Assembly: GCA_964514135.1 (NCBI GenBank)
Contig: CAZEPL010000008.1
Location: forward strand, 5,701 to 69,700
Source: an uncultured Spirochaetaceae bacterium
GTDB lineage: Bacteria > Spirochaetota > Spirochaetia > SZUA-6 > RPPD01
Reading direction: 5' to 3'
Length of the DNA: 64,000 nucleotides
The notes under the pieces were generated by a model. It worked only from the letters and a program-made list of their open reading frames with translations, searched no databases and was not told where the DNA came from. This document shows, one piece after another, positions 4,910-57,515 of the stretch. How positions within the stretch are numbered: position 1 is the first letter of the stretch; each line of letters starts with the position of its first letter. Position numbers and translations under genes: made by a program.

Positions 4910-6037
4910 GTGTTAGTGGAAAAGGTTTCCAGAGGACAAGTAGATTATTTTTTACTCGTGATAATCATTCTTTTATTTGGAGTAGGAATGGCTATTCTGT
5001 TTTCCGCCTCGTATAACCACGCTGAAAAACTGGGGAAAAATCCGCATTATTTTTTCAACAAACAGGTTGTCTGGCTGCTCTTGGGAGGATTTATCGCATA
5101 TGGTATATCGCGAGCTCCCTTGACGCTTATCAGAAAATGCATACCTTTTGTGTTGATCAGTGCTTTTTTAATCTCTCTTCTGCCTTTTGTCACGGGCCTC
5201 GGAAAAGATATTAATGGCGCACGACGCTGGATATTCTTTTTTGATTATTCCTTTCAACCCTCAGAGTATGTAAAACTGGCGCTCATCCTTTATTTGGCAT
5301 CTATACTCAATAAGAAAGAGAGCCGGCTGAATGATCCTCTAAATGCTCTGCTTCCGCCATTGCTTATTGTTTCGCTATTTGTTGTCGTGATTTTTTTGCA
5401 AAATGATCTTTCCACCGCTGCCTTCATATTTTTTATCGCCATTTCTTTATTTTATATTGCCAAGATTAAACTCATATATTTCTTTTATTTGGCAACTGTG
5501 GTACTGCCGATCGGTATAATCATCCTCTTTACAAAAACATACTGGGTAGAAAAGATCATGGCTTTTCTCGATCCCAGTCGCAATCCGGAAGGCGCAGGAT
5601 ATCAAATATTAACATCACGCATAGCGCTTGCCAGCGGGGGATTATGGGGCAAGGGATTAGGCTTGGGTGTTCGAAAGAAGCACCTGCCTGAAGCGAGCTC
5701 AGATTTTATCTTCTCTGTGGCCGGAGAGGAGATGGGGTTTATTGGTTTGTTTTTCATTATTGTTCTGTTTATGCTTTTTGCGCTGCGTGGTTTTCTGATC
5801 GCATTTAAAAGCAAAGACGGTTTTTCTTTTTTCTTGGCATTTGGCATAACATCATCCATCCTGATTCAGGCGCTGCTTAATATGTTTGTGGTAGCGGGTC
5901 TTATGCCCACAACCGGCATACCTCTGCCCTTTTTTTCACATGGCGGTTCATCGATTGTAATCACCCTTATTATGTGTGGATTGCTTATCAATTTATCGCG
6001 CACAACAAGCTCTCATGAAGGAGCGCGCTATGGCTGA
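4910..6037 (+). CDS. ftsW: SEDS-family peptidoglycan glycosyltransferase FtsW
   Basis: GTG start. About 10 TM helices. Characteristic SEDS segments (PSEYVKLALILYLA..., SDFIFSVAGEEMGFIG). Confidence 0.88.
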   Translation: MLVEKVSRGQVDYFLLVIIILLFGVGMAILFSASYNHAEKLGKNPHYFFNKQVVWLLLGGFIAYGISRAPLTLIRKCIPFVLISAFLISLLPFVTGLGKDINGARRWIFFFDYSFQPSEYVKLALILYLASILNKKESRLNDPLNALLPPLLIVSLFVVVIFLQNDLSTAAFIFFIAISLFYIAKIKLIYFFYLATVVLPIGIIILFTKTYWVEKIMAFLDPSRNPEGAGYQILTSRIALASGGLWGKGLGLGVRKKHLPEASSDFIFSVAGEEMGFIGLFFIIVLFMLFALRGFLIAFKSKDGFSFFLAFGITSSILIQALLNMFVVAGLMPTTGIPLPFFSHGGSSIVITLIMCGLLINLSRTTSSHEGARYG

Positions 6038-27946: not shown

Positions 27947-28729
27947 ATGGATCTTGGAACAATATTAGGTGTAATTGCAGGTATCTTATTGGTTGCGTTC
28001 GGTATACTGGTTATGGGGGCCTCGCTTACCACATACATCGATCCGGCATCGGTTCTCATTACTTTCGGAGGATCATTGGCAGCTATTATGATATCTAATC
28101 CGCTGTCAAGGACGTTGGGAATATTCAGATACGTACGCCAGACCTTGAGCATACCAAGCTGGGAAGAAGAACGCATTATCTCCCGCCTGGTCGCTTTTTC
28201 GGAAAAAGCACGAAGAGACGGCCTGCTTGCTTTGGAAGATGATCTGGATGAGGTTGAAGATGAATTCTTACGCAAAGGCATTCAGCTGGTTGTTGACGGA
28301 ACGGACCCGGAGATAATTAAAAATGTTTTGTATAACGAGCTGAGTAAAATACAGGAACGTCACGGAATCGGGATAAAAGTATTTGAAGATTGGGGTAAAC
28401 TGGCGCCTGCATTCGGAATGATCGGAACACTTATCGGTCTTATCTCCATTATGGGAAATATTGAAGATAAATCCGCTATCGGTCCCGGTATGGCCACGGC
28501 ACTGCTTACCACATTATACGGAGCCTTGTTTGCCAACTTGATTCTTATTCCTATTGCTAATAAATTAGAAGATAGGGATATCGCAGAGAGCCTGATAAAA
28601 GAGATTATGATCGAAGGTATACTTTCCATTCAGCAGGGTGATAATCCGAGAATTCTTGAAGAAAAGCTCATCGCTTTTCTTCCTCCGGCTCGAAGAGAAG
28701 CTATTAAACAGGAATCAGGAAGGGATTAG
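27947..28729 (+). CDS. motA: Flagellar motor stator protein MotA
   Basis: Four TM helices and a conserved C-terminal helix region (GPGMATALLTTLYGALFANLILIPIANKL). Confidence 0.92.
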   Translation: MDLGTILGVIAGILLVAFGILVMGASLTTYIDPASVLITFGGSLAAIMISNPLSRTLGIFRYVRQTLSIPSWEEERIISRLVAFSEKARRDGLLALEDDLDEVEDEFLRKGIQLVVDGTDPEIIKNVLYNELSKIQERHGIGIKVFEDWGKLAPAFGMIGTLIGLISIMGNIEDKSAIGPGMATALLTTLYGALFANLILIPIANKLEDRDIAESLIKEIMIEGILSIQQGDNPRILEEKLIAFLPPARREAIKQESGRD

Positions 28730-28740
28730 GAGAAACAAAC

Positions 28741-29469
28741 ATGCCGTTTAAAAGAAAGAAAAAAGCAAAAGGAGAGGGTTCACCGTATTGGATGATTACC
28801 TATGGCGATATGACAACGCTTTTACTGGTTTTTTTCGTGGTTATGTTTACCACAGCCGAGATTGACGGAAGCGAACTGCGTATGATTTTAGCTGCATTTC
28901 AAGGATTGGGCGTGATGAGGGGAGGTAATACCCTTCAGGTCGGTAAACTGGCGGAACTCGGCAATAACATCATGACTCTGCCCTCGGTAGAAAGAGGAAG
29001 AGCACTGGATAAGGCACGTAAATTAGCCAAATCCATCTTCGAACCGGAGATATCGGTTCGTAAAGTAAGGTTGAAAGAAGACGAACGAGGGTTAATAATT
29101 TCACTCTCTGCAGAGCTGTTTTTTGATCCGGCGAGTGCGGTGCTGAAAATTGAAGAAGCCAGGCCCATACTTTATAAGGTAAGGGATCTCCTGCTTTCCG
29201 AAGATGTTCGTGATAAAAAAGTAAGAATAGAGGGACATACGGATGATATAAAAATGGCTCCCGATTCCGAGTTCACTACTAATTGGGATCTTTCCGCAGC
29301 ACGCAGTCTCGAGGTACTGAAGTATTTAATAGAATACGGAGTGAACGAACAAAATATGCAGGTGGCGGGTTATGCCGATACGGTCCCGGTTTCGAATAAC
29401 AGTACGGAAGAGGGCAGAGCGGATAATCGAAGGGTGGATATTGTAATATTAACAGAGGGCCATTTATAG
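28741..29469 (+). CDS. motB: Flagellar motor stator protein MotB (OmpA-like C-terminal domain)
   Basis: N-terminal TM helix with the conserved Asp (WMITYGDMTTLLLVFFVV). OmpA-like peptidoglycan-binding C-terminus (NWDLSAARSLEV...NRRVDIVI). Confidence 0.92.
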   Translation: MPFKRKKKAKGEGSPYWMITYGDMTTLLLVFFVVMFTTAEIDGSELRMILAAFQGLGVMRGGNTLQVGKLAELGNNIMTLPSVERGRALDKARKLAKSIFEPEISVRKVRLKEDERGLIISLSAELFFDPASAVLKIEEARPILYKVRDLLLSEDVRDKKVRIEGHTDDIKMAPDSEFTTNWDLSAARSLEVLKYLIEYGVNEQNMQVAGYADTVPVSNNSTEEGRADNRRVDIVILTEGHL

Positions 29470-29501
29470 AACGGCAGTTTAAAAATAAATTATTAAGTAT
29501 T

Positions 29502-29538
29502 GAGCTTTTTGCAAAAATGTTATTTTTGCAAAAAGCTC
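29502..29538. repeat. Perfect 16-bp-arm inverted repeat (GAGCTTTTTGCAAAAA-N5-TTTTTGCAAAAAGCTC) between motB and fliL
   Basis: Read directly from the sequence. Arms 29502-29517 and 29523-29538, loop TGTTA. No mismatches. Confidence 0.8.
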
Positions 29539-29570
29539 CTAATATTATATGAAGATAGAGAGGTGAGAAA

Positions 29571-30128
29571 ATGGCTGATGAAGATCGTTTTTTAGACAGC
29601 GAAGCCGATCAAGCGACCGAAGAGGTTGAAGTTGGCCGGAAAGTTGGTTTTGTTCCCGCTCTGGTATTAAAGGCCTTAAAATGGGCAGCTATCGGAATTA
29701 TCGTGGTATTACTCGTCATTATTGTGGCCTATTTAACAGTAGAAATTGCCATGCAGGGCAGGGTGCCGGCACAGGATTTACCTCCTGTATCCCAGCAGAT
29801 CGCCGCATCAACTGAGATCTATCAGATCTATAAGAATCTAAAACCGTTAAGAGGACAGACATCGGATAATCCGCCATATATTTATACGGCGGAAATACAT
29901 ATCGCTTATGAAAAAGGTAATAATGCCATGACTACAGAGATTAATGAAAGAGATTCGCAAATACATAATCTTATTTTGAAAATATTGGGCAGCAAAAAAT
30001 CGAGTGAGCTTAATACCAATGATTTTAGTTTACTGGAAAGGGATATTACCTATAGTCTGAATCAAATTATGCGAAGCGGGAAAATAAAGGCTATATTTAT
30101 TCAGGAGATGCAGACTTTTCCACAGTAA
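29571..30128 (+). CDS. fliL: Flagellar basal body-associated protein FliL
   Basis: 185 aa. Single TM helix (IGIIVVLLVIIVAYL). Position between motB and fliM. Confidence 0.75.
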   Translation: MADEDRFLDSEADQATEEVEVGRKVGFVPALVLKALKWAAIGIIVVLLVIIVAYLTVEIAMQGRVPAQDLPPVSQQIAASTEIYQIYKNLKPLRGQTSDNPPYIYTAEIHIAYEKGNNAMTTEINERDSQIHNLILKILGSKKSSELNTNDFSLLERDITYSLNQIMRSGKIKAIFIQEMQTFPQ

Positions 30129-30190
30129 GAGTAATGATAAACACTTTGCTTAAAATAAAAAAAGTTGTATAATGGAATAAGAGGATGTAG

Positions 30191-31216
30191 ATGACTGAAG
30201 TTCTCTCTCAAGATGAAATAGATCAACTGCTTTCGGCCATATCATCAGGAGAAGTGGAAACCCCTGACACACAGGCCATGCCTGCTCAGCGCAATATCAA
30301 AATCTATGATTTTAAAAGACCGGATAAATTCTCCAAAGATCAAATACGAACCGTCTCCATTATGCATGAGACCTTCGCCAGACTTACCACCACATCGCTT
30401 TCGGCACAACTAAGAAGTCTGGTGCATGTGCATGTCGCCTCTGTAGATCAGCTTACCTACGAGGAGTTTATACGATCTATTCCCAATCCCACTACTCTGG
30501 CTGTGATTAATATGGATCCGCTTAAAGGCTCGGCCATACTTGAAATCGATCCTTCGGTTACATTTTCCATAATTGACAGACTTTTTGGGGGACAGGGCGA
30601 AGAAACAAAACTATCGAGAGATCTTACTGATATCGAGCAATCGGTCATGGAAGGAATAATTGTGCGGATATTGGGCAATATGCGTGAAGCCTGGAGCACG
30701 GTTATTGATTTAAGGCCCCGCTTAGGACAGATTGAAACAAATCCACAATTCGCACAGATTGTACCTCCTACCGAAATGGTGGTACTTGTGACACTTGAGA
30801 CGAAAGTCGGGGATGTAGACGGGCTTATGAATTTTTGCATTCCGTACCTGACTATCGAACCGATTATCTCGAAATTATCCGCGCAATACTGGTATTCTTC
30901 TGTACGGCGAGGGACTACAACCGAGAACCTGAATATTTTGAGAGAACGTCTGGAAACGGTGAGCGTGAATATAGTGGCGGAGATAGGCAGCATGATGCTC
31001 AAAGTAAAAGATGTGTTGGCTTTAAAAAAAGGGGATGTGATACGGCTGCCCAATGTGAGAATAAACGATCCTATGGGTTTGAAAATAGGAGATAGAAAGA
31101 AATTTTTATGCAGACCGGGAATAGTTGGTAATAAAACGGCGATTCAAGTTATAAAGAAGCTTGAAGAAACAAAACCCGAAGAGTTTGAAGAACTTAAAGT
31201 AGAAGGGGAGGAGTAA
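30191..31216 (+). CDS. fliM: Flagellar motor switch protein FliM
   Basis: N-terminal LSQDEIDQLL CheY-binding motif, CheC-like middle domain, C-terminal SpoA-like domain. Confidence 0.93.
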   Translation: MTEVLSQDEIDQLLSAISSGEVETPDTQAMPAQRNIKIYDFKRPDKFSKDQIRTVSIMHETFARLTTTSLSAQLRSLVHVHVASVDQLTYEEFIRSIPNPTTLAVINMDPLKGSAILEIDPSVTFSIIDRLFGGQGEETKLSRDLTDIEQSVMEGIIVRILGNMREAWSTVIDLRPRLGQIETNPQFAQIVPPTEMVVLVTLETKVGDVDGLMNFCIPYLTIEPIISKLSAQYWYSSVRRGTTTENLNILRERLETVSVNIVAEIGSMMLKVKDVLALKKGDVIRLPNVRINDPMGLKIGDRKKFLCRPGIVGNKTAIQVIKKLEETKPEEFEELKVEGEE

Positions 31217-53219: not shown

Positions 53220-53408
53220 TTTAATATAAGTTTATATGAGGAAATTGCAAAAATCAATATGTTTGACTGTTTTTTTGGCAAAGTAGTTTATTCATTCTCA
53301 TTTAAAATGGGAATTGCCATTGTTGACCATACTATTTAATTTGTGTAGACTCTATGTACGAAAATTGCGGTTTTACGCAATGTGCAAAAATTAATTGTGA
53401 GTTATGGC

Positions 53409-53891
53409 ATGAGACGTGTAATATATCCGGGAACATTTGATCCTCCAACCAACGGACATTTAAATGTTATATCAAGAGCCGCCAAAATATTTGATCAGAT
53501 AGAGATTGTCATAGCGGTAAATTCCGAAAAGCACTGTGTGTTTACCCCCCAAGAACGTTTTGATATGTTAAAGAACCTGGTAAAAAAGCATAAAAATGTC
53601 AATGTCCACTTATGGGAAGGTCTTATAGTGAATTTTGCACAGAAAATGAAGGCAAATGTGATATTGAGGGGAGTACGGGCACTTTCTGATTTTGATCATG
53701 AGTTTGAGTTATCTATGATGAACAAGGCTCTTAATCCGGATATTGAAACGATTCTTTTACCAACGGATAAAAAGTACTTTGTTTTAAGGTCCTCTGCCAT
53801 AAAAGAAGTAGCGCATTTTAAGGGAGACATCTCTGAAATGGTGCCTAAACTTGTGGCAGATGCTTTAAAGTTAAGATTACAAAGTTCTTGA
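53409..53891 (+). CDS. coaD: Phosphopantetheine adenylyltransferase CoaD
   Basis: MRRVIYPGTFDPPTNGHLNVISRA (nucleotidyltransferase H-x-G-H motif). The ORF-track start at 53382 is probably too far upstream. Confidence 0.92.
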   Translation: MRRVIYPGTFDPPTNGHLNVISRAAKIFDQIEIVIAVNSEKHCVFTPQERFDMLKNLVKKHKNVNVHLWEGLIVNFAQKMKANVILRGVRALSDFDHEFELSMMNKALNPDIETILLPTDKKYFVLRSSAIKEVAHFKGDISEMVPKLVADALKLRLQSS

Positions 53892-54436: not shown

Positions 54437-55195
54437 ATGCTTAAATACACAATAAAAGGTAACGTACCTCCGATAGACCAGGAAAGAAAGAAAGAATTAA
54501 AATTATTTCAAAAACTCGCTGGATTAAGGTTCAAGAGTGCTAACTTCTTGAACCTCGCTTTTGCGCATAGATCATACGCAAATGAAATACCGGGCGATAG
54601 TGAAAATAATGAGAAATTAGAATTTTTAGGCGATTCGGTTCTTGGGCTCATCGTAAGCGAATATTTATTTATTAATTTAGAGGATAAAACCGAAGGCGAT
54701 CTGGCAAAGATTAAATCATTTGTAGTCAGTGAAGATATTCTCGCATCGGTGGCAAAAAAAATCCGCGTCGATAATTATATACTTATCGGCAAGGGAGAAG
54801 AATACTCAGGTGGAAGAAGTAAAAAAGCCCTTATAGCTGATGCAATGGAAGCTATTTTTGGAGCCTATTATTTGGACTCAGGCTACACTGCAGTAAGAGA
54901 ATTCGTATTAAAACTGTTAATGCCTGAGATTGATAAAGTAGTAGAAGATAGACACAAAAAAGATTATAAAAGCTTATTACAAGAATTGGTTCAAAAGAAA
55001 TTTAAGGCTTACCCCAGATACAGCGTCATAAGAAAAACCGGACCTGACCATGATAAAACATTTGTTATAGAGGTGAGTATAAACAATATATCATATGGTA
55101 AGGGTGTGGGAAAGAATAAAAAAGAAGCGGAACAACAGGCTGCCGGTATTGCGTATAATACGTTAACTAAGCAGTCTACGTTAAAAAAGACTTAA
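54437..55195 (+). CDS. rnc: Ribonuclease III
   Basis: ERLEFLGDSVLGL catalytic signature and C-terminal dsRBD. Confidence 0.95.
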   Translation: MLKYTIKGNVPPIDQERKKELKLFQKLAGLRFKSANFLNLAFAHRSYANEIPGDSENNEKLEFLGDSVLGLIVSEYLFINLEDKTEGDLAKIKSFVVSEDILASVAKKIRVDNYILIGKGEEYSGGRSKKALIADAMEAIFGAYYLDSGYTAVREFVLKLLMPEIDKVVEDRHKKDYKSLLQELVQKKFKAYPRYSVIRKTGPDHDKTFVIEVSINNISYGKGVGKNKKEAEQQAAGIAYNTLTKQSTLKKT

Positions 55196-56540
55196 GGCGT
55201 TGTTCATAAAATCTTTTTGCAATATTCAATAATGTTTCACGCGTATTCAACGCAGGATCATCGAGTACACATTCCAGAAGATAATCTAATATTTTTCCTA
55301 CATACACACTCTGAGAGATAGCAAGCTCCTGCATAACATCGTGACCATTTATACAAAGATCTTGAACTGAAAAAATTCTACTGTCTTGCAGTAATTTATT
55401 AATTCGCGCTCGAAACTGCCCAAGATTATAAGAAATCACCGGATGATTACACATCCCCATCTGATCCGCCTTTCTTAAAGCGAACAGATCATCTATATGC
55501 GTGGGGCCAATCCGGCGGATAAATCGTCTAACTGCCGCATCGGACCATGATTCATCATAGCTCCACATATGCTGTAAAATAAGATGACATGTGTTTTCCA
55601 TGATTACATTAGAAAATATAAGACGCTTAAGGATTCGATATGCAAGTTGCTTGGATTTTATTTCATGACTGTAAAAACGAAGTTCGCTGTTTTCGTTCTG
55701 GGTAATTGAAATTGGCTTTCCAATATCATGGAAAAGAGCGGCTAATCTTACCGGTAAATTGGAGGGTGGTGCTGCATCGCATGAATAAAGTGAATGATAA
55801 TAAACATCAAAACAGTGCATGGCAGGTTGTTCCACATCTTTACAGGCCTCAAGCTCAGGAAGTATGTAATGCATCAGGCCTGTTGTTCGCAGTAATTCAA
55901 AACCCTGTGAGGGAGTATGAGTTTCAAGAATTTTAATCAGTTCATCTCGTATACGTTCTTGTGAAATATTTTTAATCAGGTGAGCGGTTTGGGTGATGCC
56001 GTGAAAAGTTTCATCTTCAATGTTGAATCCCAAAACACAGGCAAAACGGCATGCTCTTAGCGTGCGCAGAGCATCCTCCTCAAAGCGTCGGACCGGATCG
56101 CCGATGGCTCTTATAATCTTTTTTTTAAGATCGGCTCTGCCATTAAACGGATCATGCAAAGCATGAGTGTTTAAATCATAGGCAAAAGCGTTTATGGTAA
56201 AATCTCTTCGTTTAAGATCTTCATAGAGCGAGGGTGAAAAATCTACTTTGTCCGGTCTTCTATGATCCGTATAGTTACCATCTATTCTAAAAGTGGTAAC
56301 TTCAAACTGGTGAGTTTTAAAAAGAACGGTAACCGTACCATGCTGTATTCCGGTGGGAATAACCCTGCTAAACAATTGACTGACTTGTTGAGGTAAGGCA
56401 TCAGTAGCAATGTCAAAATCTTTAATTTTCTTCCCCAATAAAAGATTGCGAATAGCTCCACCTACCACATAGCACTGGAATCCTTTTGTTTTAAAACGGG
56501 ATGCTAACTTCTTTAAGTCATTCAGCAACTTTATCTTCAT
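55176..56540 (-). CDS. cca: CCA-adding tRNA nucleotidyltransferase (Pol-beta NT domain plus HD domain)
   Basis: GGAIRNLLLGKKIKDFDIATDALP head domain. HD-domain region (LAALFHDIGKP). Confidence 0.85.
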   Translation of the reverse strand: MKIKLLNDLKKLASRFKTKGFQCYVVGGAIRNLLLGKKIKDFDIATDALPQQVSQLFSRVIPTGIQHGTVTVLFKTHQFEVTTFRIDGNYTDHRRPDKVDFSPSLYEDLKRRDFTINAFAYDLNTHALHDPFNGRADLKKKIIRAIGDPVRRFEEDALRTLRACRFACVLGFNIEDETFHGITQTAHLIKNISQERIRDELIKILETHTPSQGFELLRTTGLMHYILPELEACKDVEQPAMHCFDVYYHSLYSCDAAPPSNLPVRLAALFHDIGKPISITQNENSELRFYSHEIKSKQLAYRILKRLIFSNVIMENTCHLILQHMWSYDESWSDAAVRRFIRRIGPTHIDDLFALRKADQMGMCNHPVISYNLGQFRARINKLLQDSRIFSVQDLCINGHDVMQELAISQSVYVGKILDYLLECVLDDPALNTRETLLNIAKRFYEQRLKSFLT

Positions 56541-56642: not shown

Positions 56643-57515
56643 TTATCTAAACAACTGGAGTACAGATTGAGGTTTGGTATTTGCCTGTGCCAGCATGGCG
56701 GTAGCAGACTGTACCAAGATCTGGTTTTTCACGAAACTAACCATCTGCTCTGCCATATCTGCATCCCTAATGCGGGATTCAGCTGCCTGCATGTTTTCCG
56801 CTCCTGTTAACAGACCAAAAACAGCGTACTCCATTCTGTTTTGAGAAGCACCGAGATCGGCACGCTGCTTGCTGACCTTTTTTAAGGCCTCATCAATGAC
56901 TCCGATCGAGCGGTTTGCACTGTCGGGAGTTTCCAGCGAGAGAAAAGTAGCATCATGCGGATATCCGTCGGCTCCTTGAATTCCCAATCCTTGAGCAGTC
57001 ATGGTGCCAATGAATACTCTTTCTCTTTGATCCATATTTGCACCGATGTGAAACCACATACTACCTGTAATTGAATTTTCACCGGTAAATCTGGCGAAGC
57101 GGCCGGTGAGAAAGTTCATACCGTTAAACTGAGCATGAGACGCAATACGGTTCACTTCATCGACAAGCTGTGAGACCTCTACCTGAATCTGCATACGGTC
57201 TTCATCCGAATAGATTCCGTTTGAGGCCTGAATAGCCAACTCGCGCAAGCGCTGCAGGATATCCTGTGATTCCTGTAAATAACCTTCAGCTACCTGGATA
57301 AAAGAAATACCGTCTTCCGCATTCATGGCTGCTCTGTTTAAACCGCGTATTTGTGAGCGCATCTTTTCAGATACGGCTAAACCGGATGCGTCATCACCAG
57401 CTCTGGTTATTCGTAAGCCAGAGGAAAGTTTCTCCATATCTTTGTCTAATCCTATGCCATTGGATTTTAAGTGCCGAAATGCAAACATGGCACTTAGGTT
57501 GTGGTTAATAATCAT
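56643..57515 (-). CDS. flaB: Flagellar filament core flagellin FlaB
   Basis: [20 protein letters not shown]...[34 protein letters not shown]-terminus and conserved C-terminal helices ([16 protein letters not shown]). Spirochete FlaB length of 290 aa. Confidence 0.95.

Follow-up and report, generated by a model that had tools for sequence, protein, structure and literature searches.

A perfect palindrome of 37 bp lies between the flagellar genes motB and fliL in the 64-kb stretch of spirochaete DNA analysed here (hereafter the window). Its position raises the question of whether it belongs to the control machinery of the flagellar operon or was brought there from elsewhere. The evidence given below argues for the latter: the palindrome is very probably the terminal hairpin of a MITE family (miniature inverted-repeat transposable elements, small mobile repeats that are non-autonomous) resident in this lineage of uncultured Spirochaetales, left by a recent and truncated insertion, and is a passenger and no conserved flagellar regulator.

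The palindrome and its genomic setting

The features on which the description of the locus is based are as follows.

28741..29469, plus strand: motB (Pfam MotB), the upstream gene, with its stop codon 32 nt before the hairpin
29502..29538, minus strand: GAGCTTTTTGCAAAAATGTTATTTTTGCAAAAAGCTC, a perfect hairpin with a 17-bp stem and a 3-nt loop, equivalent to consensus positions 85-121 of a 121-nt repeat
29560..29566, plus strand: GAGGTGA, the ribosome-binding site of fliL, starting 21 nt downstream of the hairpin
29571..30128, plus strand: fliL (Pfam FliL), the downstream gene

The gene names proposed in an earlier note on this DNA were confirmed by Pfam, whose labels also placed flgE, flbD, motA, fliM, fliY (FliN-like) and fliO around motB and fliL. 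Intergenic gaps from flgE to fliY measured 19, 5, 11, 101, 62 and 2 nt. The motB-fliL gap, which the same note had singled out at about 100 bp, is thus the largest of the six at 101 nt, a size that we attribute to the mobile-repeat footprint sitting there. The gap between fliY and fliO, just past this stretch, is 152 nt long. A gene for RNase III is found in the same window at 54437-55195 on the plus strand. It is followed on the minus strand by a gene for a nucleotidyltransferase of the poly(A)-polymerase/CCA-adding type with an HD domain (55176-56540) and by a flagellin gene (56643-57515), the group lying about 25 kb downstream of the palindrome. The flagellar gene row has a G+C content of about 0.42, and downstream of it, at window positions of about 38000-64000, lower values of about 0.33-0.37 were observed.

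Analysis with a repeat finder resolved the palindrome into two arms of 17 nt (29502-29518 and 29522-29538), 100% complementary and separated by the loop GTT. The 37-bp perfect palindrome of the earlier note therefore stands, while its division into 16-nt arms around a 5-nt centre gives way to a 3-nt loop and one additional pair. The 12-bp self-palindrome TTTTTGCAAAAA is present in both arms, which makes them direct repeats of each other as well, 17 bp apart. The strand of the hairpin is weakly assigned, given two symmetric arms and a loop that flips from one copy of the repeat to another. The stem is A+T-rich, with G-C pairs at four of its 17 positions.

The occurrence of such a palindrome is far outside chance expectation. 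It was the sole perfect short-spacer inverted repeat of at least 13 nt in the scanned 64-kb window. Folded as RNA it reached -20 kcal/mol, against -5.8 +/- 2.3 for shuffled sequences (z = -6.2), and none of 200 shuffles folded as well; the folding energy as DNA was -16.8 kcal/mol. In the predicted RNA fold the flanking bases pair too and lengthen the hairpin, and the GAGGTGA of fliL does not pair with it. The statement that no T-tract follows the hairpin also held, on either strand, the tail being CUAAUAUUAUAU. No terminator-like or sigma-70-like promoter site was called at the hairpin in a scan of positions 28500-30500. A search of the 64-kb window for a second exact copy of the palindrome arm returned none; loose matches only were seen, one of them within a coding region at 5389-5408.

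Authenticity of the sequence

A sequence of this kind might be suspected of being a hairpin chimera created by an assembler, and two Logan contigs do break off at precisely the final palindrome base (window position 29538), as would be expected where assemblers struggle: a 35.6-kb contig from SRR8556697 and one from SRR9706179. However, the MotB sequence of the window was found, identical, on nine metagenome contigs, and four independent JGI contigs from different samples traverse the palindrome with identical sequence. In addition, motB and fliL are collinear on either side and the orthologous gene order continues on both flanks. Since four JGI contigs cross it, the palindrome is real DNA that is hard for assemblers and not a chimera, and an artefactual origin is scarcely conceivable. 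As an assembly break point in two assemblies, the palindrome is of practical interest for both annotation and assembly.

Absence from related flagellar operons

The motB-fliL junctions of the nearest relatives found by protein search were compared with the window. They represent six close and three distant lineages, and the MotB homologues come from MAGs labelled 'Spirochaetales bacterium' or 'Spirochaetia bacterium'.

Lineage; MotB identity; motB-fliL gap; palindrome
L007 (sister MAG GCA_016930675.1); 94%; 55 nt; absent
L016-19; 94%; 41 nt; absent
L008-10; 83%; 24 nt; absent
L011-13; 82%; 23 nt; absent
L014-15; 82%; 23 nt; absent
L020-21; 80%; 62 nt; absent
L071; 70%; 60 nt; absent
L072; 65%; 59 nt; absent
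L073; 65%; 88 nt; absent

Neither the palindrome nor anything similar to it occurred at this site in the nine lineages examined, whose gaps extend over 23-88 nt compared with 101 nt here. The palindrome is therefore a lineage-specific addition. Orthologous presence in relatives, the property by which a conserved flagellar cis-element would be recognized, was found in none of the nine. The GAGGTGA ribosome-binding site and the start of fliL were kept in all relatives examined. These results are at odds with the earlier note, in which three readings were put forward (a dimeric-regulator operator, an attenuating RNA hairpin and an RNase III-type processing site), all implying an element proper to the flagellar operon, which every examined relative lacks. 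That note had itself held absence from the clade, as one part of the contrary evidence, to speak against its proposals, and on this part nine of nine relative lineages were without the palindrome.

Stem-loops of another kind were observed in the distant lineages. The whole 88-nt gap of L073, from a 4.5-Mb genome (positions 1727-1814), has a predicted fold of -28 kcal/mol that includes a G+C-rich stem-loop with a GCCGGT-ATAA-ACCGGC core, and weaker stem-loops are present in the gaps of L071 and L072. As these stem-loops are unrelated, structured spacers at the motB-fliL junction arose independently.

A dispersed repeat family

The check that the earlier note had proposed, a search for other copies, was carried out and turned up a dispersed repeat in the sister MAG and in metagenomes, of MITE rather than REP character. 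Metagenome contigs were scanned with the pattern TTTTTGCAAAAA-N5-TTTTTGCAAAAA (20 loci) and the genome contigs of GTDB species-representative genomes with TTGCAAAAAT-N3-ATTTTTGCAA (at least 29 loci). Both scans used exact patterns, which miss diverged copies, and the metagenome collection has gaps, as shown by the absence of the JGI contigs of the window itself from the matches; the copy numbers given here are therefore lower bounds. Most matches were unrelated palindromes sharing just the core set by the search pattern. Among these, a longer palindrome with a variable 3-nt loop, ATAATGGGATGG-TTGCAAAAAT-NNN-ATTTTTGCAA-CCATCCCATTAT, was present in six Microcoleus species (L044, L046, L049, L051, L056 and L063); it is unrelated to the MITE and has only the search-pattern core in common with it. 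Likewise unrelated are tandemly arranged units of about 17 nt, AAATCATTTTTGCAAAA, at positions 1861-1923 of Ga0208946_1000713 (L041), a contig of 29% G+C.

Members of the family proper are hairpins of the form GAGC/GAGT...GCTC/ACTC with a 3-nt loop, preceded by a common module of about 84 nt. The sister MAG GCA_016930675.1, in which the motB-fliL site is empty, holds at least seven hairpin copies on at least five contigs. Four further family loci were found in the metagenome samples Ga0315549, Ga0307422 and Ga0307430, a sample series related to the samples that contain the motB of the window. In all the loci noted from the sister MAG and from this series, the hairpin forms the right end of an intergenic element of 121-130 nt. 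Copies are found in both orientations, all of them intergenic and many directly after the 3' end of a gene. The neighbouring genes are unrelated (a sigma factor, mltG/yceG, an MBL-fold hydrolase), and BLAST similarity between family loci stops at the borders of the element. One more full-length copy lies on a 2.7-kb contig (CAZDVE010000092.1) of a MAG labelled Pirellulales; its presence there is likely due either to a mis-binned contig or to recent transfer. This copy was observed to be 97.5% identical to one in the Spirochaetales MAG.

Incomplete copies were also encountered. The sister genome contains one copy without its left part (L042) and a solo left-end fragment (L045, at about 2955-2984), and the family profile revealed a degenerate fragment in the window itself:

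53238..53321, plus strand: GAGGAAATTGCAAAAATCAA, degenerate family fragment found as a profile match, with no hairpin

Its left end, GAGGAAATTGCAAAAaTCAA, agrees with 19 of 20 consensus positions, after which the match decays. The fragment is intergenic, between divergent genes, and is located upstream of a cytidylyltransferase-like gene (53382-53891). At one locus sampled twice, an insertion of about 70 nt directly after a full-length MITE was seen in one sample (L030, 4695-4763) relative to the other (L029, 2641). It has nested inverted repeats of its own (TAATCATTG...CAATGAT and ATAATTTTTGT...ACAAAAATTA) and could represent another small, palindromic mobile element.

No match to the 121-nt element or to the hairpin pattern was obtained in viral contigs or in the plasmid and phage collections. 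No Rfam family reached gathering score in the window, and in five family loci the repeat gave sub-threshold noise alone. The 121-130-nt repeat family appears to be undescribed.

Anatomy of the element and signature of transposition

Eleven independent full-length copies could be aligned across 121-130 nt, with a mean column identity of 87%. Their 121-nt consensus is GAGGAAATTGCAAAACTCAAAATATATTAAGTTAGTAAAATACTTATTCTTTATACCATAATAAGTTAGCAATTTCCATTTTAG followed by GAGCTTCTTGCAAAAAT-NNN-ATTTTTGCAAGAAGCTC. A full-length element consists of the left end GAGGAAATTGCAAAA, an imperfect stem-loop of about 77 nt, a 7-nt spacer and the perfect 37-nt hairpin. The consensus folds into two domains, of which one is a 9-bp closing stem (GGAAATTGC/GCAATTTCC) round an A+T-rich interior and the other the perfect 17-bp hairpin. 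The terminal inverted repeats are imperfect, short and conserved among copies: of 15 positions, 11 agree between GAGGAAATTGCAAAA and the right end in its inverted form, GAGCTTCTTGCAAAA. The outer arm of the hairpin, which is GAGCTTCTTGCAAAA when read inwards, is in this way an imperfect inverted repeat of the left end.

On both sides of each of the 11 independent full-length copies stands an exact direct repeat of 4 bp, never longer, which differs by locus (GGCT, AATT, TTTT, ACTA, ATCT, TTCT, ACTT, AGCT, AAAT, TATA and ACAT). By chance such flanking repeats would be expected with a probability of about 0.0044 at a single locus and of about 1e-26 at all 11 together. Given 4-bp duplications at 11 of 11 copies, inverted-repeat ends and dispersal, the family is a MITE. 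No ORF of at least 100 aa spans any of its copies. The exact 4-bp duplications, the two orientations and the lack of a U-tract also led to the rejection of another identity, that of a small RNA gene or riboswitch composed of the 84-nt module with the hairpin as its terminator.

Substitutions in the hairpin stem are compensated. Alignment columns 100 and 124 form a C-G pair in seven copies and a T-A pair in four, with pairing kept, and columns 97 and 127 are C-G in eight copies, T-A in two and T-G in one. The loop varies freely (GTT, AAC, CTT, AAG, TTT, AAT, GTC), its variants often being reverse-complement pairs such as GTT/AAC and CTT/AAG. At columns 100/124, the C-G variant is found in all seven listed sister-genome copies and T-A in the window and in the metagenome copies of the related series, a distribution that suggests lineage-specific subfamilies marked by stem variant. 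From the shared stem variant and the related sample series we infer that the full-length T-A metagenome copies belong to the organism of the window.

No transposase gene was found beside the terminal-repeat motif GAGNNNNTTGCAAAA in any fetched locus, where MITE copies and fragments only were present. A cognate autonomous element would be expected to have the ends GAGNNNNTTGCAAAA...TTTTGCAANNNNCTC and to generate 4-bp duplications. The sole transposase encountered, a gene with an IS91-type transposase zinc-binding domain, was noticed in a G+C-richer segment 134 nt from one MITE copy (L040, 1869-2762). As a partner of the MITE it was rejected, for it is not bounded by MITE terminal repeats.

The truncated copy at the motB-fliL site

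Applied to the window, the family profile matched positions 29543-29502 on the minus strand (E = 3.5e-8) over consensus positions 80-121. Three short features adjoin the hairpin.

29498..29501, no strand: TATT, left copy of a putative 4-bp target-site duplication
29539..29542, minus strand: CTAA (TTAG in minus-strand reading), a tetranucleotide found ahead of the hairpin in nearly every full-length copy
29543..29546, no strand: TATT, putative right-hand counterpart in that duplication

On the plus strand the arrangement reads ...AAG TATT [GAGC...GCTC CTAA] TATT ATATG.... The hairpin together with CTAA makes up a retained piece of 41 nt, consensus positions 81-121. Lacking the element's first 80 nt, the window copy is a truncated member of the family. 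It is an atypical one, being the sole hairpin-only copy among the 13 loci of the matches listed.

The TATT bracket is shifted by 4 nt relative to the hairpin and fits the 4-bp rule only if TTAG belongs to the copy, so that the duplication reading consists of a 4-nt TATT match and a 4-nt interior match to TTAG, in AT-rich DNA. The TATT match alone was judged to arise by chance at an order of a few percent when alternative registers are allowed. Another parsing is an imperfect 8-nt duplication, TAAGTATT and CTAA-TATT, directly flanking the bare hairpin; it is less parsimonious than a duplication of TATT. Removal of 45 nt from the window leaves a gap of 56 nt, AACGGCAGTTTAAAAATAAATTATTAAGTATTATATGAAGATAGAGAGGTGAGAAA, that lines up by eye with the 55-nt gap of the sister, ...GCAGTTTAGAATTATTGTTAGCAGTATCATGTAAATAGAGAGGTGAGAAC, including AGTAT(T/C)AT at the point of insertion.

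Two simple deletions were considered as the origin of the 41-nt copy, one between the direct repeats GAG...TTGCAAAA and one at a TAG microhomology. Both were rejected because neither yields the observed junction AATA|TTAG|GAGC. The flanks of the window copy resemble those of two other copies (L029 and L035), with ATACTTAA and CTAAGTATT beside the hairpin; these shared flanks are too short and A+T-rich to carry weight, and the likeness may reflect target preference.

Relation to known mobile repeats

MITEs are reported to be numerous in the genomes of Spirochaetes (PMC11602168), and the family matches the definition of these elements (PMC3184786, PMC11602168). It shows each of the tested MITE traits: size, inverted repeats at the ends, duplication of the target site, dispersed copies, and filled and empty sites. 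Several bacterial MITEs were used for comparison, namely Correia/NEMIS of Neisseria, ERIC of enterobacteria, RUP of Streptococcus pneumoniae, MITEAba12 and Nezha. As in MITEs generally, the family is short, without coding capacity, bounded by terminal inverted repeats and by an exact target-site duplication at every full-length copy. Its dispersed intergenic copies, in both orientations, are present or absent between sister genomes and are predicted to form long stem-loops if transcribed. On the other hand, its sequence is unrelated to Rfam or to the searched plasmid, phage and viral collections. Correia and RUP elements duplicate TA and MITEAba12 duplicates 9 bp, whereas the duplication here is 4 bp. 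The family further departs from the named MITEs in its right end, a perfect back-to-back double terminal repeat that gives the element three end-like sequences, in the reduction of the window copy to the terminal 41 nt, and in the fact that no partner insertion sequence was identified for it.

A short extragenic palindrome of about 35-40 nt that lies between two cistrons of an operon, and that would presumably be transcribed along with them into a hairpin, also recalls the REP/BIME elements of enterobacteria and pseudomonads, which are mobilised by RAYT tyrosine transposases. The classic REP in malE-malF stabilises the upstream mRNA. REPs are, however, G+C-rich imperfect palindromes with a conserved 5' tetranucleotide of the GTAG type and no target duplication, whereas the hairpin here is A+T-rich and perfect and starts with GAGC, in a family with terminal inverted repeats and 4-bp target-site duplications. 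A REP identity was accordingly rejected on the grounds of the missing GTAG-type head, the A+T-rich and perfect arms, and the target-site duplications of the family. In PMC3184786, Stern et al. 1988 is cited for an influence of BIMEs on the stability of mRNA.

Like an intrinsic terminator, the palindrome gives a stable stem-loop shortly after a stop codon. Unlike a Rho-independent terminator, it has four G-C pairs out of 17 and no U-tract on either strand, it was not called in the scan, and the same strand carries further essential flagellar genes beyond it. An intrinsic terminator or attenuator was therefore rejected, there being no G+C-rich stem with a U-tract and no such site called in 28500-30500.

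Alternative explanations

A mobile origin is compatible with a function acquired afterwards. The MITE hairpin could have been co-opted as a stability barrier, or as an RNase III or RNase E site, in a polycistronic flagellar mRNA, where it would uncouple the flgE-motAB message from that of fliL-fliM-fliY. Such a role is unlikely, even though several observations agree with it. The RNA hairpin is stable at -20 kcal/mol, and flank pairing in the predicted fold extends it further; its intercistronic position leaves the ribosome-binding site of fliL free; and an RNase III gene is present at 54437-55195. Repeats such as REP, ERIC and Correia can affect mRNA stability or processing, and unrelated stem-loops occupy this gap in each of the three distant relatives (that of L073 being the strongest, at -28 kcal/mol for the whole gap). 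The insertion is also identical in contigs from six samples (JGI 3300031278, 3300031624, 3300031650 and 3300031643; SRR8556697 and SRR9706179); the flanks of these six contigs are identical too, and this identity is therefore silent on selection. Against co-option, the palindrome is absent from the six close lineages, whose operons work with gaps of 23-62 nt. Moreover, RNase III substrates typically comprise roughly two helical turns, and the 17-bp stem is shorter. A literature search on Correia elements and RNase III returned no directly useful paper. As elements of the operon's own, neither the attenuator of read-through from motAB into fliL-fliM-fliY nor the RNase III site setting stator/switch stoichiometry, both suggested in the earlier note, is supported by the comparison: all examined relatives lack the palindrome, and no terminator-like site was called.

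An operator composed of two 12-bp half-operators TTTTTGCAAAAA, 17 bp apart, might bind a dimeric or tetrameric regulator at an internal promoter of fliL-fliM-fliY. The double-palindrome architecture is indeed present, and similar TTTTTGCAAAAA-N5-TTTTTGCAAAAA arrangements occur in unrelated bacteria. Yet no sigma-70-like promoter was called in or beside the palindrome, the orthologous sites of relatives are without it, the same sequence ends a transposed repeat near a sigma factor, mltG/yceG and an MBL-fold hydrolase, and the changes in loop and stem preserve complementarity and not a fixed DNA sequence. An operator is thus very improbable, and the dimeric-regulator operator of the flagellar operon proposed previously has against it its absence from the relatives' sites and the identity of its sequence with the end of a transposed repeat. 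Slighter still are the prospects of a palindrome that arose in place, by a replication template switch from a quasi-palindrome. Perfect arms around a free loop are the product to be expected of such a switch, and the loop flips among copies (GTT/AAC, CTT/AAG) show that events of this type happen within the hairpin. But the 37 nt are identical or nearly so to the terminal hairpin at no fewer than 12 other loci, including 4 nt outside the stem; the empty site of the sister holds no precursor quasi-palindrome; and the adjoining 84-nt module common to the other copies excludes independent convergence.

Origin of the insertion and its consequences

The insertion of a truncated MITE, which we prefer, would involve the following course of events. 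The family would have been moved by a transposase supplied in trans and making a 4-bp staggered cut. At the motB-fliL site, 45 nt, made up of the terminal 41 nt of the repeat and the TATT duplication, joined an ancestral gap of about 56 nt after the lineage of the window had split from its closest sampled relatives. Transposition of a copy with an internal deletion is one conceivable route, and insertion of a full copy that afterwards shed its first 80 nt is the other. The insertion lies between the stop codon of motB and the intact ribosome-binding site of fliL, and the flagellar row presumably reads through it, judging by the gene order here and by what is generally known of spirochete flagellar operons.

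On the transcript, the insertion would appear as an AU-rich hairpin of -20 kcal/mol with no U-tract. Such a hairpin is presumably tolerated because it has no U-tract and does not overlap the ribosome-binding site. The most likely effect on the mRNA would be nil, or a mild shift in local or segmental stability or processing, and we infer that the insertion is neutral. Cleavage is possible in principle, since the organism encodes RNase III, and any such effect would be incidental to the insertion. A bolder proposal, also quite unlikely, holds that the hairpin of 37-41 nt is a minimal mobile unit moved alone by the family transposase, that it was co-opted to tune the motAB:fliLMY message, or both. 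If this were true, a minimal mobile hairpin made of two terminal repeats back to back would be among the smallest transposable DNAs known, and the copy in the flagellar operon would set the ratio of stator to switch message in this species.

The 45-nt difference between sister genomes constitutes a natural test, by which one could measure directly what an added hairpin does to a flagellar transcript spanning several genes. The main value of the present analysis lies in a correction: what resembles a regulatory palindrome in a conserved operon is very probably the footprint of a mobile repeat. The family to which it belongs adds one case to the many MITEs reported in Spirochaetes, and its traits are a length of 121-130 nt, 4-bp duplications, a doubled right end in the form of a perfect hairpin, compensated stems and flipping loops.
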